DNA from: Escherichia coli O127:H6 str. E2348/69
GTDB taxonomy: Bacteria; Pseudomonadota; Gammaproteobacteria; Enterobacterales; Enterobacteriaceae
Reading direction: 5' to 3' (one strand)
DNA: 64,000 nt
Assembly: GCF_000026545.1 (NCBI RefSeq)
Contig: NC_011601.1
Shown here: positions 57,970 through 64,000 of the stretch, in pieces
Numbering within the stretch: position 1 is the first letter of the stretch
Layout of the letters: the number at the start of each line of letters is the position of its first letter
Position numbers and translations under genes: made by a program
The notes under the pieces: generated by a model
Databases searched by the model: none
Told to the model about the DNA's origin: nothing
The model's input: only the letters and a program-made list of their open reading frames with translations

Positions 57970-58088
57970 GTGAGATAAACAGTGCCGGGTAGATGATTAA
58001 TCCCGGCATATTCACGTTTCCACCACAAAATACCGGGTAACCACTGCTGAATATTGTTCTCTCCTGAGTAGCGTTTATGCTTTAATTG

Positions 58089-58102
58089 CTAAACCGATTT
58101 AA
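58089..58102. promoter_or_regulatory. Candidate ScrR (LacI-family) operator upstream of scrK
   Basis: ctaaaccgatttaa matches the perfect palindromes upstream of scrY (ctaaaccggtttag) at 12 of 14 positions. Confidence 0.35.
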
Positions 58103-58133
58103 TTAGTTTAGCAATTAGTATATTGGAGCCTTT

Positions 58134-59054
58134 ATGAGCGCAAGAGTATGGGTACTCGGTGATGCGGTTGTTGATTTATTACCCGAAAGCCAGGGGAGAC
58201 TACTACAGTGTCCTGGCGGGGCGCCTGCTAATGTTGCAGTCGGTATCGCAAGGCTGGGGGGGAAAAGTGCCTTTATTGGCAAAGTTGGCGATGATCCTTT
58301 CGGTCGCTTTATGTATCAGACACTGAGTACAGAAAATGTTGATACACGTTATATGTCTCTTGATCCTCAACAACGCACCTCAATTGTGGCTGTAGGACTT
58401 GATGAGCAAGGAGAAAGAAACTTTACCTTTATGGTACGCCCAAGTGCCGATCTTTTTTTACAACCTGATGACCTTCCTACATTTGGGCCGGGTGAATGGC
58501 TCCATCTTTGTTCCATTGCGCTCAGTGCAGAACCTTCCCGAAGTACCGCATTTCTGGCTATGGAGAAAATACGTCAGGCTGGCGGAAACATCAGTTTTGA
58601 TCCCAATATCCGCAGCGATCTCTGGCAGAGTGAAGCGCTATTAAGAAAATACCTTGATCGCGCGCTTTCGCTGGCGAATATCGCTAAATTGTCCGAAGAA
58701 GAGTTGCTATTCATCAGTGGCGAAAGCCAGGTTCAGCAAGGCGCATATTCATTAGTACAACGTTATTCGTTGACTTTATTGCTTATCACACAAGGAAAAA
58801 ATGGCGTACTTGTGTATTTTCAGGGGCAGTTTATCCACTATCCCGCCAAACCTGTTTCTGTCGTCGATACGACCGGGGCAGGAGATGCTTTTGTCGCTGG
58901 ATTACTTGCAGGTCTGGCTGATTCTGGAATACCAACAAATACCAGACAGCTTGAACGAATCATTGCACAAGCTCAGATTTGTGGTGCTCTGGCGACCACG
59001 GCTAAAGGCGCGATGACCGCCTTACCCCGACAACACGATCTCCCTTCACAATAG
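58134..59054 (+). CDS. scrK: Fructokinase (PfkB family) ScrK
   Basis: 306 aa; VLGDAVVDLLPE...LLQCPGGAPANVAVG...DTTGAGDAFVAGLLAGL is highly similar to enterobacterial ScrK. Confidence 0.85.
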   Translation: MSARVWVLGDAVVDLLPESQGRLLQCPGGAPANVAVGIARLGGKSAFIGKVGDDPFGRFMYQTLSTENVDTRYMSLDPQQRTSIVAVGLDEQGERNFTFMVRPSADLFLQPDDLPTFGPGEWLHLCSIALSAEPSRSTAFLAMEKIRQAGGNISFDPNIRSDLWQSEALLRKYLDRALSLANIAKLSEEELLFISGESQVQQGAYSLVQRYSLTLLLITQGKNGVLVYFQGQFIHYPAKPVSVVDTTGAGDAFVAGLLAGLADSGIPTNTRQLERIIAQAQICGALATTAKGAMTALPRQHDLPSQ

Positions 59055-59085
59055 TGATCCTGCTGTTGTATCTGTAACCCGATTT

Positions 59086-59101
59086 GTCGTGCCTGTCACA
59101 T
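59086..59101. promoter_or_regulatory. Candidate CRP site upstream of scrY
   Basis: TGTCGtgcctgTCACA has one perfect half-site and one imperfect half-site with correct spacing. Confidence 0.3.
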
Positions 59102-59104
59102 TTA

Positions 59105-59118
59105 CTAAATCGGTTTAG
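59105..59118. promoter_or_regulatory. Candidate ScrR operator (near-perfect palindrome) upstream of scrY
   Basis: ctaaatcggtttag, a 14-bp palindrome with one mismatch. Confidence 0.4.
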
Positions 59119-59163
59119 CGAAAATAATTGCTCTGGCTAAAAAGTCAGCTTTATTATCAACAC

Positions 59164-59177
59164 CTAAACCGGTTTAG
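59164..59177. promoter_or_regulatory. Candidate ScrR operator (perfect 14-bp palindrome) upstream of scrY
   Basis: ctaaaccggtttag is perfectly self-complementary and lies about 45 bp upstream of the scrY start. Confidence 0.45.
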
Positions 59178-59197
59178 CATTTTAGCAATTTTTATAA

Positions 59198-60739
<1,542 letters not shown>

Positions 60740-60747
60740 TACCAGAC

Positions 60748-60770
60748 AGCCTCACGGATGTGAGGCTTTT
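60748..60770 (+). terminator. Intercistronic hairpin plus T-tract between scrY and scrA (possible partial terminator / attenuator)
   Basis: agcctcac-ggat-gtgaggct followed by ttt. Confidence 0.4.
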
Positions 60771-60799
60771 ACTGAAATAACAATGAATTAGAGGGTTAT

Positions 60800-62170
60800 A
60801 TGGATTTCGATAAAATCGCCCAATCGTTGCTTCCTTTATTAGGTGGTAAGGAGAACATCGCCAGTGCAGCACATTGCGCCACTCGCCTACGGCTGGTACT
60901 GGTTGACGACACACTTGCCGATCAACATGCCATTGGCCAGATTGATGGAGTGAAAGGTTGTTTTCGTAATTCAGGGCAAATGCAAATCATCTTTGGCACC
61001 GGCGTGGTTAATAAAGTCTATGCTGCCTTTATTCAGGTTGCAGGTATTAGCGAATCCAGTAAAGCAGATACCGCTCGACTCGCCGCTCAAAAACTCAATC
61101 CTTTTCAGCGAATAGCACGGCTACTTTCTAATATTTTTGTCCCCATCATTCCAGCCATTGTTGCTTCTGGTTTATTAATGGGGCTCCTGGGAATGGTGAA
61201 AACATATGGCTGGGTGAATGCCGATAATGCGATTTATATCCTGCTGGATATGTGCAGTTCAGCCGCATTTATTATTCTCCCCATCCTTATTGGCTTTACT
61301 GCTGCTCGTGAATTTGGTGGAAATCCTTATCTTGGCGCGACATTAGGAGGGATTCTGACTCACCCGGCACTCACAAATGCCTGGGGCGTTGCTGCGGGAT
61401 TTCAGACAATGAACTTCTTCGGTTTTGAAATCGCCATGATTGGCTATCAGGGAACGGTTTTCCCCGTGCTTCTGGCAGTATGGTTTATGAGCATAGTGGA
61501 AAAACAGTTACGCAGGTTTATCCCTGATGCTCTGGATCTCATTCTGACGCCATTTCTGACTGTCGTCATTTCTGGCTTTATCGCTCTTTTGATTATTGGT
61601 CCGGCAGGACGAGCGTTAGGTGACGGTATCTCTTTCGTTCTCAGCACGCTGATTGCACACGCAGGCTGGTTAGCAGGGTTGTTATTCGGCGGGCTATATT
61701 CAGCGATTGTTATTACGGGTATTCATCATAGCTTCCACGCAATTGAAGCAGGACTTTTAGGTAACCCTGCAATCGGTGTTAATTTCCTGCTGCCTATTTG
61801 GGCAATGGCAAACGTTGCGCAAGGAGGTGCATGTCTGGCGGTATGGTTTAAAACCAAAGATACAAAAATTAAAGCAATCACCCTACCCTCGGCCTTTTCC
61901 GCAATGTTAGGGATTACTGAAGCCGCTATTTTTGGTATCAACCTTCGTTTTGTTAAACCTTTTATTGCGGCCTTAATTGGTGGCGCTGCCGGCGGTGCCT
62001 GGGTTGTCTCTGTTCACGTTTATATGACTGCCGTTGGTCTGACCGCAATACCCGGCATGGCAATCGTTCAGCCAACATCGTTGGTTAATTATATTATTGG
62101 AATGGTGATTGCTTTCGCTGTCGCTTTTAGCCTCTCTTTATTACTCAAATACAAAACGGACGAGGAGTAA
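60800..62170 (+). CDS. scrA: PTS sucrose-specific EIIBC component ScrA (456 aa)
   Basis: N-terminal EIIB cysteine motif (AAHCATRLR) followed by a glucose-family EIIC membrane domain. Confidence 0.9.
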   Translation: MDFDKIAQSLLPLLGGKENIASAAHCATRLRLVLVDDTLADQHAIGQIDGVKGCFRNSGQMQIIFGTGVVNKVYAAFIQVAGISESSKADTARLAAQKLNPFQRIARLLSNIFVPIIPAIVASGLLMGLLGMVKTYGWVNADNAIYILLDMCSSAAFIILPILIGFTAAREFGGNPYLGATLGGILTHPALTNAWGVAAGFQTMNFFGFEIAMIGYQGTVFPVLLAVWFMSIVEKQLRRFIPDALDLILTPFLTVVISGFIALLIIGPAGRALGDGISFVLSTLIAHAGWLAGLLFGGLYSAIVITGIHHSFHAIEAGLLGNPAIGVNFLLPIWAMANVAQGGACLAVWFKTKDTKIKAITLPSAFSAMLGITEAAIFGINLRFVKPFIAALIGGAAGGAWVVSVHVYMTAVGLTAIPGMAIVQPTSLVNYIIGMVIAFAVAFSLSLLLKYKTDEE

Positions 62171-63579
62171 TGTCGATGCCTTCACAAATGCCCGCGATTT
62201 TACAGGCAGTGATGAAAGGTCAGTCCAAAGCACTGGCAGATGCCCACTATCCTTGTTGGCATCTCGCTCCAGTCACCGGACTAATGAACGATCCAAATGG
62301 CTTTTGTTGGTCTGGAGGCCGCTATCATCTGTTTTATCAATGGAATCCACTGGCTTGTGATCATAAGTACAAATGTTGGGGGCACTGGAGTTCGACGGAT
62401 TTATTGCACTGGCAGCATGAACCATTAGCGCTAATGCCCGATAAAGAGTACGACCGTAATGGTTGTTACTCAGGAAGCGCGGTTAATAATCAGGGCGTTC
62501 TCACACTTTGCTATACCGGTAATGTTAAGTTTGATGATGGCAGCAGAACGGCATGGCAATGCCTGGCCACCGAAAATAACCAGGGCGGGTTTGATAAACT
62601 AGGCCCTGTCATACCGTTACCTGATGGTTACACCGGACATGTTCGTGATCCAAAAGTCTGGAAGCACAACAGCCAATGGTACATGGTGCTTGGCGCGCAA
62701 GATAAAGAGAAACGGGGGAAAGTGCTGCTGTATTCCTCTGTCGATCTCTATACCTGGTCTTTTCATGGAGAAATTGCTGGTAACGGTCTGAATGAAATAG
62801 ATAACGCAGGATACATGTGGGAATGTCCTGATCTTTTCGCCCTTGATGGTGAATACATTCTCCTCTGTTGCCCCCAGGGAATGGTGCGCGAACATGAGCG
62901 CTATCTGAATACTTATCCCTGCGCCTGGCTACATGGACAGTTTGATTACGAGACAGGCAAATTTACGCATGGCGCTTTCTCAGAGCTGGATGCGGGATTT
63001 GAATTCTATGCACCACAGACGATGGAAGCCCCGGACGGGCGACGATTGCTGGTCGGCTGGATGGGGGTTCCTGATGGCGAAGAGATGTTGCAGCCAACCA
63101 GAAAGCATCATTGGCAGCATCAAATGACCTGTTTTCGCGAACTCTCATTCCAGAAGGGAAAATTGTTTCAGATGCCAATCAGGGAACTCGCGCAACTGCG
63201 TGAAGCTGAACACTTCTGGCAAGGAAAAGCGGATCATGCGCCGCATGTCGAAATTGAACGCCTGGAAATGGACATCATTCCGTCGGGTGAGCTGTATCTG
63301 AATTTTGGCAATGCGCTGGCACTGCATCTTAATGACGATGGTATTCAACTACAGAGGAGAAGCCTTGCAGGGCAAGAGAAACTAACTCGTTACTGGCGAG
63401 GAAGCGTAACGTCACTGAAGATTCTCTGTGACAGTTCCAGCGTAGAGATATTCATCAATAATGGTGAAGGTGTAATGAGTAATCGTTATTTTCCCCATCA
63501 TCCAGCTTCGCTGATATTACAGGGTGAGTCTGACGTCACGTTACGCTACTGGTCGCTACGCGCCTGCATGGTAGAATGA
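62170..63579 (+). CDS. scrB: Sucrose-6-phosphate hydrolase (GH32) ScrB
   Basis: 469-aa ORF with GH32 motifs (NDPNG, RDPKV, EC); start overlaps the scrA stop. Confidence 0.9.
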
Positions 63580-63604
63580 GGGTTTTGAATTACGGATCCT
63601 CGTC

Positions 63605-64000
63605 GTGAGAAAAACCAAACGCGTTACTATTAAAGACATTGCTGAACTGGCGGGAGTGTCGAAAGCAACCGCCAGTCTGGTTCTCAATGGTCGTGGCAAA
63701 GAGTTACGTGTTGCGCAGGAAACGCGTGAGCGTGTGCTGAGTATTGCCCAACAGCAGCATTATCAGCCCAGCATTCATGCCCGCTCATTACGGGACAACC
63801 GCAGTCATACCATTGGTCTCGTCGTTCCTGAAATCACTAACTACGGATTTGCAGTATTTTCCCATGAACTGGAAACATTGTGTCGGGAAGCGGGCGTCCA
63901 GCTCCTCATATCCTGTACTGATGAAAATCCTTCACAGGAAACAATGGTGGTGAACAATATGATTGCCCGCCAGGTTGATGGGTTAATCGTCGCATCCAGT
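63605..64000 (+). CDS. scrR: LacI-family sucrose operon repressor ScrR, 5' part (continues beyond the window)
   Basis: GTG start; [29 protein letters not shown]... is a classic LacI-type HTH. Truncated by the window end. Confidence 0.8.

Follow-up and report, generated by a model that had tools for sequence, protein, structure and literature searches.

An intercistronic stem-loop lies in the gap between the sucrose porin gene scrY and the sucrose permease gene scrA in the Escherichia coli scrYAB(R) mRNA, and it is thermodynamically unusual for its sequence. Comparison of orthologous gaps shows that a hairpin at this site persists across the Enterobacterales, evidently by selection on pairing and not on sequence. 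On this basis we tentatively propose, with a confidence just short of even, that the element is a protective 3′ hairpin for the scrY segment of the transcript, of the malE–malF type. An earlier, preliminary description of this DNA had offered two functions, a partial terminator or an RNA-stability element that sets the porin-to-permease ratio, and we find that RNA stability fits the evidence better than termination.

The hairpin is located within a 64-kb stretch of DNA (64,000 nucleotides (nt), hereafter referred to as the window) that carries a sucrose locus of the E. coli chromosomal scrK–scrYAB(R) type. The RefSeq gene order at the locus is ygcE, a kinase gene (scrK), scrY, scrA, scrB, scrR (encoding a LacI-family regulator) and queE, and RefSeq labels the scrY product as a carbohydrate porin, that of scrA as a sucrose PTS IIBC protein and that of scrB as a sucrose-6-phosphate hydrolase. 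NCBIfam agrees with RefSeq on the two neighbours of the hairpin (LamB-type carbohydrate porin and sucrose PTS IIBC), with a fructokinase and the sucrose-6-phosphate hydrolase on the flanks. The gene assignment in the preliminary description, a porin gene and a PTS permease gene separated by 60 bp, agrees with the open reading frames and with both annotation sources. As quoted in PMC11251922, Cowan 1991 places scrY as gene 1 of the scrYAB(R) transcription unit, and the same source, quoting Cowan 1991 and Jahreis & Lengeler 1993, gives two transcription units, scrK and scrYAB(R), with operators at the scrY promoter. The gap measures 60 nt, from the stop codon of scrY (TAA, 60737–60739) to the ATG of scrA, which begins at 60800. 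The features of the junction are as follows.

59222–60739, + strand: scrY, sucrose porin of 505 amino acids (open reading frame; LamB-type porin match; RefSeq carbohydrate porin)
60730–60745, + strand: weak 5-bp hairpin CUGGU-UUUAAU-ACCAG over the scrY stop codon (minimum free energy (MFE) fold)
60748–60755, + strand: 5′ arm of the hairpin, RNA AGCCUCAC, beginning 8 nt past the scrY stop (sequence and folds)
60756–60759, + strand: tetraloop GGAU, replaced by AGAU in two minor E. coli alleles (sequence and alleles)
60760–60767, + strand: 3′ arm of the hairpin, RNA GUGAGGCU (sequence and folds)
60768–60770, + strand: U run UUU, or UUUU with the closing A–U pair open, followed by ACUG (sequence; terminator score d of +4.8)
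60771–60789, + strand: A/U-rich linker ACUGAAAUAACAAUGAAUU, with weak predicted pairing only (sequence and MFE fold)
60790–60795, + strand: scrA Shine–Dalgarno sequence AGAGGG, 4 nt 5′ of the ATG (sequence)
60800–62170, + strand: scrA, the downstream gene, encoding the sucrose-specific PTS IIBC permease (TIGR01996, 649.6 bits, above cutoff)

The Shine–Dalgarno sequence of scrA lies 22 nt past the stem and is free of hairpin pairing, and a (C)AGAGG(G/T) motif before the scrA ATG is conserved among orthologues. The linker contains GAAUU, a match to the RNase E motif RN|WUU in the form quoted in PMC5927463, and is a putative site of endonuclease entry. The small hairpin over the stop codon is specific to E. 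coli, being missing from the orthologous gaps compared, and is probably incidental. The end of scrY with its stop codon (UUUUAAU, 60734–60740) can pair with the Shine–Dalgarno region of scrA (AUUAGAG, 60787–60793), with the hairpin enclosed between them, and RNAalifold gives an equivalent pairing, of UUCUGA with UCAGAG, for the Klebsiella/pUR400-type gap. Because both segments are constrained for other reasons, we regard this pairing as a mere lead for translational coupling.

The surroundings of the locus are shared with other E. coli strains. Several complete E. coli genomes match the window with 100% identity over a 701-nt stretch around the hairpin. The near-identical FDAARGOS_536 genome (NZ_CP033762.1) differs from the window at 13 positions in the last 5.4 kb, and upstream of scr (window positions 1–58000) the two are not collinear and therefore differ by indels. 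In NZ_CP033762.1, ygcE and queE flank the scr locus, and the interval from iap to cysH contains a Hok/Gef gene.

The 8-bp stem and trailing ttt of the preliminary description are exact in sequence. Positions 60748–60771 read, in order, AGCCTCAC, GGAT, GTGAGGCT, TTT and A, and the stem consists of eight perfect pairs, four of which are G–C. By itself the hairpin has a ΔG of −13.0 kcal/mol, and the fold of its 38-nt context reaches −15.3 kcal/mol (z = −4.98), a value equalled by none of 200 shuffles; the hairpin is also retained in the MFE structure of its 81-nt context. Perfect 8-bp-stem hairpins account for 17 entries in the 64-kb window, about twice the 7.5 ± 2.6 of dinucleotide shuffles, which implies an expectation of about 0.007 for any given 60-nt gap. 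A chance origin of the hairpin is therefore unlikely. The hairpin is real, and its kind is ordinary among same-strand gaps of E. coli: when the sequence of a related E. coli record was scored for itself, 13 of its 22 same-strand gaps (n = 22) contained a hairpin of −11 kcal/mol or below. Another intercistronic hairpin of the same general kind, the REP-like GCCUGAUAAG...GCAUCAGGC (−17.6 kcal/mol), occupies the cysI–cysH gap of the cysJIH operon in that record (L087, 10910–10982).

Several known classes of element were considered as identities for the hairpin and rejected. An Rfam 15 scan of positions 58000–64000, with E-values up to 10, returned sub-threshold chance matches only, and the sole match overlapping the hairpin was Chlorobi-1 on the minus strand, which scored 19.7 bits where the gathering threshold is 50. 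The hairpin has a single match in the window even when three mismatches are allowed, the gap has a median of one location per genome, and allele-specific 43-mers occur at one to two places per genome; being unique in the window and present at one place per genome, the hairpin is not a REP/BIME repeat. Its half-sites, TCAC-N4-GTGA, are the reverse of the GTGA-N6-TCAC of a CRP site. A terminator for a minus-strand gene was rejected, as both neighbours are on the plus strand and the minus-strand copy of the stem is followed by GTCTGGTA, with no T run; a terminator-like match on the minus strand at 60747–60728 is the small stop-codon hairpin, with no gene there to terminate. An Hfq-type, 3′-derived small RNA was likewise rejected, with only 4 U past the stem and literature support not found. 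A search of the scrY–scrA gap for an internal scrA promoter found no promoter-like site.

The hairpin is also unrelated to the operator palindromes CTAAA(C/T)CGGTTTAG of the LacI-type regulator ScrR, and it differs completely between orthologues, which excludes a ScrR operator. Two operator-like palindromes of the form CTAAA(T/C)CGGTTTAGC are present elsewhere, in the scrK–scrY gap (59106–59120 and 59166–59180). These near-identical copies, CTAAATCGGTTTAGC and CTAAACCGGTTTAGC, fit the two pUR400 ScrR operators around the scrY promoter, and a similar palindrome, AGCTAAAACGGTTTAGCT, follows scrY in the Aeromonas loci (L075–L081).

We compared 80 loci encoding ScrY relatives, one per species, extracting each scrY–scrA junction, seeking the best single hairpin in each gap and scoring it against shuffles. 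Among the 63 Enterobacterales gaps of at least 57 nt, 62 contain a hairpin of −10 kcal/mol or below and 59 contain one of −12 kcal/mol or below, with a median ΔG of −18.1 kcal/mol; z is −2 or lower in 47 of the 63, and G+C-rich gaps fold fairly stably even when shuffled (shuffle means of −9 to −14 kcal/mol). The hairpin begins a median of 6 nt past the scrY stop codon, and in the 126–136-nt gap found in Klebsiella, Raoultella, Kluyvera and pUR400-like loci it begins at +25. The position is occupied by at least seven mutually unrelated types of stem sequence, as read by eye from the listed stems: AGCCUCAC in E. coli, ACGCUCCCGC in Enterobacter, Citrobacter and Lelliottia, CCGGGGCG in the Klebsiella type, GCGGCGCC in K. 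pneumoniae, GGCCCC in Pantoea and Kosakonia, GGCCUUCGGG in Mangrovibacter, CCCUGGCG in Symbiopectobacterium and CGCCGGU in Brenneria. The hairpin is absent from eight orthologues with gaps of 28–39 nt (Erwinia, Winslowiella and some Pantoea).

Within clades, the pairing is preserved through changes of sequence. In the Enterobacter clade (n = 18), pairing holds in 98.9% of the cells of a 10-bp stem, two pairs are double-changed (A–U to C–G and C–G to G–U) and three more vary via wobble, whereas variation is free in the loop and the 3′ tail; the covariation score was reached by none of 500 shuffles, and slid controls were 42–60% paired. In the Pantoea/Kosakonia type (n = 14), the stem is 94.8% paired and again has two double-changed pairs (C–G to U–A), and the invariant columns of the gap all lie inside the stem-loop, mostly at stem positions. 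The Klebsiella-type alignment conserves a CCGGGG/CCCCGG base, with compensatory changes further up the stem. The covariation support is modest, with two double-changed pairs per clade among related sequences, and is consistent in independent clades. This comparison bears on the RNA-stability half of the earlier suggestion, which is strengthened by the presence of a hairpin at the same place in nearly all of the longer gaps and by the compensatory changes within it.

Some lineages carry further structures at the junction. Past its first hairpin and 5′ of the scrA Shine–Dalgarno sequence, the Klebsiella/pUR400-type gap (loci L002, L008, L020–L025, L070 and L085) also carries a small, conserved second hairpin, CCCCGUGAACACGGG, and possibly a third, CGCAG...CUGCG. 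In the K. pneumoniae type strain (L027), the gap is rearranged, measures 104 nt and holds a different hairpin, GCGGCGCC...GGCGCCGC. In Aeromonas (L075–L081), the gene order is scrY, scrK and scrA, an operator-like palindrome follows scrY, and the Shine–Dalgarno sequence of scrA is directly preceded by a GC-rich hairpin such as GGCCCGCCAGCGTGGCGGGTC, some 40 nt from the gene.

The scrY–scrA junction was found in 987 of 5,426 complete E. coli genomes, in which the hairpin occurs as three alleles that vary at positions 60749, 60756, 60764 and 60766. The window allele, with a G–C pair at 60749–60766 and a stability of −15.3 kcal/mol, is present in about 875 genomes (by subtraction). The S115 allele (50 genomes) has a G·U pair at 60749–60766, an AGAU loop and a U run extended to 5, and reaches −12.9 kcal/mol. 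The strain-103 allele (62 of the 987 genomes, ~6%) has an A–U pair at 60749–60766, a compensatory end state, together with a C·A mismatch at 60751–60764, and is weakened to −6.3 kcal/mol. The series G–C, G·U and A–U at 60749–60766 fits selection on pairing. In strain 103, all four substitutions of the 131-nt alignment fall inside the 20-nt hairpin, a clustering that might reflect template switching in a quasi-palindrome or relaxed constraint. Both scrY and scrA are intact in strain 103, and the persistence of its weakened allele with intact genes indicates that these lineages, at least, can do without a strong hairpin.

The hairpin could also have no present function. It would then be either a selectively neutral palindrome or what is left of a decaying terminator that dates from an era when scrY was a separate transcription unit, tolerated because read-through is not blocked. 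Such an origin would sit well with the frequency of similar hairpins in E. coli same-strand gaps, with the much weakened allele in 62 genomes and with the eight orthologues that have no hairpin, and the order in Aeromonas, where an operator-like palindrome and scrK set scrY apart from scrA, indicates that scrY may form a unit of its own. A remnant in decay would be expected to lose its stem, yet stable stems persist at a constant offset in 62 of the 63 longer gaps, their columns form a conserved island in fast-changing gaps, and the pairs change in a compensatory way. That unrelated stems have replaced one another at a single position suggests that a hairpin has been selected for repeatedly, and we therefore consider absence of function doubtful.

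We assessed termination by scoring hairpins with T-tails over the whole window on both strands, using ViennaRNA energies and the d-score of d'Aubenton-Carafa; absolute d-values are rough, because the formula was run with modern energy parameters. The stem has the form expected of a terminator (G+C-rich, ~5–14 bp, short loop), with eight pairs, a 4-nt loop and −13.0 kcal/mol. The hairpin scores +4.8, and only when the closing A–U pair is counted as tail. It ranks 12th of the 17 sites with d > 0 in the window, in which the strong terminators at operon ends score 25–56. A consensus terminator scan requiring at least 5 U in 8 did not report the site, the tail of which, UUUACUGA, has 4 U in 8. Among the 63 orthologues, d is above 0 in 15, none of which exceeds 20, and at or below 0 in the other 48; tails of the form GCG-UUU(U/C) occur in several orthologues from Enterobacter and Citrobacter (d of +3 to +17), and the Klebsiella/pUR400-type stem is followed by ACACAATAAC (RNA ACACAAUAAC), without any U. 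Conservation thus lies in the stem and does not extend to the U run.

A leaky intrinsic (Rho-independent) terminator, at which a fixed fraction of polymerase stops so that the ratio is set mainly at transcription and not at decay, is in our estimation unlikely to be the principal function. The window allele is one of only 17 positive-scoring sites, shuffled sequence yields only about 1.1 sites scoring at least as well per 128 kb, and the U-containing tails of Enterobacter and Citrobacter and the five-U run of the S115 allele point in the same direction. Against these observations stand the failed consensus scan, a d-value far under those of the operon-end terminators of the window, and the 48 orthologues, including the U-less Klebsiella/pUR400 type, in which d is not positive. 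Position also weighs against termination. For the tR2 terminator in E. coli in vivo, repression was nearly complete at the shortest distances from a stop codon tested, 8–9 bp, and full efficiency was attained only past ~30 bp (PMC4824070); the scr hairpin begins 8 nt past the scrY stop, at the distance of near-full repression by the ribosome. Moreover, scrA and scrB rely on the scrY promoter (Cowan 1991, as quoted in PMC11251922). The terminator half of the earlier suggestion thus loses ground, its T-tract being short (3–4 T) and unconserved, and the E. coli allele may make at most a minor contribution through weak termination.

A described class of protective structures offers a closer parallel. 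Among 34 E. coli operons in which decay is differential and favours the 5′ gene, 26 have the 3′ end of the stabilised RNA just past a stable hairpin without a U tract (PMC5927463), and such structures are often conserved in Salmonella and Enterobacter (Dar & Sorek 2018, PMC5927463). At the scr junction, a stable hairpin (−13 to −15.3 kcal/mol, z of about −5) directly follows the promoter-proximal gene, and the structure is conserved in orthologous operons, with two covarying clades; the window allele has a short run of three to four U, and most orthologues have none. Since the stem is conserved and the U run is not, the hairpin matches the class of Dar and Sorek, and a protective 3′ hairpin is the explanation that we favour.

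The protective hairpin would act in the following way. Polymerase would transcribe through the scrY–scrA gap, because only three to four U follow the hairpin and because the hairpin starts 8 nt past the stop codon, where a terminating ribosome hinders termination. An endonuclease, probably RNase E, would cut the A/U-rich linker or the less densely translated scrA–scrB part of the message, and 3′-to-5′ exonucleases would retreat to the hairpin and halt there. The scrY message would then outlast the scrA–scrB message and, we propose, the cell would therefore make more of the outer-membrane porin than of the inner-membrane permease and the hydrolase. A small fraction of polymerase may terminate at the hairpin and its U run, which would shift the ratio in the same direction. 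The structure and its conservation are shown, and the cutting, the halt of the exonucleases and the shift in expression ratio are inferred. A search of the literature on scr operons for transcript, 3′-end and half-life data found none, and a paper on K. pneumoniae scrA and scrY knockouts contains no expression ratios. The literature found for scrY in combination with terminator, stem-loop, Hfq or CsrA leaves the hairpin undescribed and links scrY to neither CsrA regulation nor Hfq; the original sequence papers may have drawn the hairpin.

The hairpin could instead act on what lies downstream or through a bound protein, either by protecting the 5′ end of a processed scrA–scrB message, as in papBA, or as a CsrA-type hairpin that controls scrA translation. 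In Aeromonas, a GC-rich hairpin precedes scrA even though the upstream gene is scrK and not scrY, and in the window GGUUU (60732–60736), upstream of the hairpin, matches the RNase E motif RN|WUU (PMC5927463). In the Enterobacterales, however, the hairpin tracks the scrY stop codon (median of 6 nt), whereas the scrA start is 30–100 nt away. As to CsrA, the top of the hairpin, CAC-GGAU-GUG (60753–60761), presents GGA in the loop, and loop and stem together read GGAUGU, the 3′ half of the CsrA SELEX consensus RUACARGGAUGU. A second GGA (60802–60804) lies 46 nt downstream, within AUGGAU at the start of scrA (60800–60805). A CsrA site is nevertheless doubtful: the GGAUGU match is unconserved, with GGA in the terminal loop of only 2 of the 63 orthologues, and the two minor E. 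coli alleles carry AGAU. A downstream-acting or protein-binding function is, on balance, very improbable.

Finally, the hairpin could be a conditional terminator gated by translation. A ribosome finishing scrY would block its folding and let polymerase enter scrA–scrB. A failure of scrY translation, such as one caused by envelope-stress small RNAs that target porin mRNAs, would leave the hairpin free to form and to halt or destabilise the transcript. The short distance from stop codon to hairpin is conserved (~5–8 nt in most lineages), and distance-dependent repression of a terminator by the ribosome is documented (PMC4824070), but the U tract is weak and unconserved, and we give this possibility little weight. 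If it were true, synthesis of the permease and the hydrolase would be tied to successful synthesis of the porin.

If the hairpin is protective, as we favour, the Scr system would share the post-transcriptional logic of malEFG, in which one promoter yields unequal doses, here more of the outer-membrane porin than of the inner-membrane PTS permease and the hydrolase. This would be relevant to the engineering of sucrose use with scr cassettes, in which porin-to-permease dosage affects growth, and to the interpretation of RNA-seq data from scr+ pathogens such as ST131. The comparative pattern, one position with many unrelated stems and compensatory changes, makes a clean, small case of selection on RNA shape, and the natural weak allele of scr+ E. 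coli is a ready-made natural experiment. The scrY–scrA hairpin alters no general concept.

A comparison with known systems places the scr hairpin closest to malE–malF, whose intercistronic hairpins were reportedly described by Newbury et al. in 1987. Like scr, malEFG has a stable stem-loop after the promoter-proximal gene of a sugar-uptake operon, and this gene encodes an envelope component needed in excess over the inner-membrane permease. In both malE–malF with its protective class and the scr hairpin, the structure is conserved between species; a proper U tract is missing from the protective class and appears to be missing from the scr hairpin, of which the window allele has a short run of three to four U. 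In contrast, the malE–malF element consists of REP repeats, which are present in hundreds of copies, whereas the scr hairpin is single-copy. malEFG is regarded as the archetype, in which an abundant periplasmic component outlasts the membrane permease subunits (PMC5927463). Many of the structures of Dar and Sorek lie inside the downstream coding region, whereas the scr hairpin lies in the gap.

REP/BIME elements resemble the scr hairpin as imperfect-to-perfect palindromes in same-strand gaps, the REP-like example being that of cysI–cysH, but the sequences of the cysI–cysH and scr hairpins are unrelated. Intrinsic terminators that act as attenuators inside operons share with scr a G+C-containing hairpin followed by a U run on the sense strand, between genes of differing dosage, but the U run of the scr hairpin is three to four long and unconserved, its d-value of +4.8 is borderline and it lies 8 nt from a stop codon. 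The papB–papA and puf hairpins, according to the passages of PMC5927463 that treat them, give unequal stoichiometry of operon mRNAs through segmental stability, which is the likeness to scr that we propose. In papBA, the stabilised part lies downstream of the cleavage and is protected by a 5′ hairpin, whereas the scr hairpin hugs the stop codon of the upstream gene.
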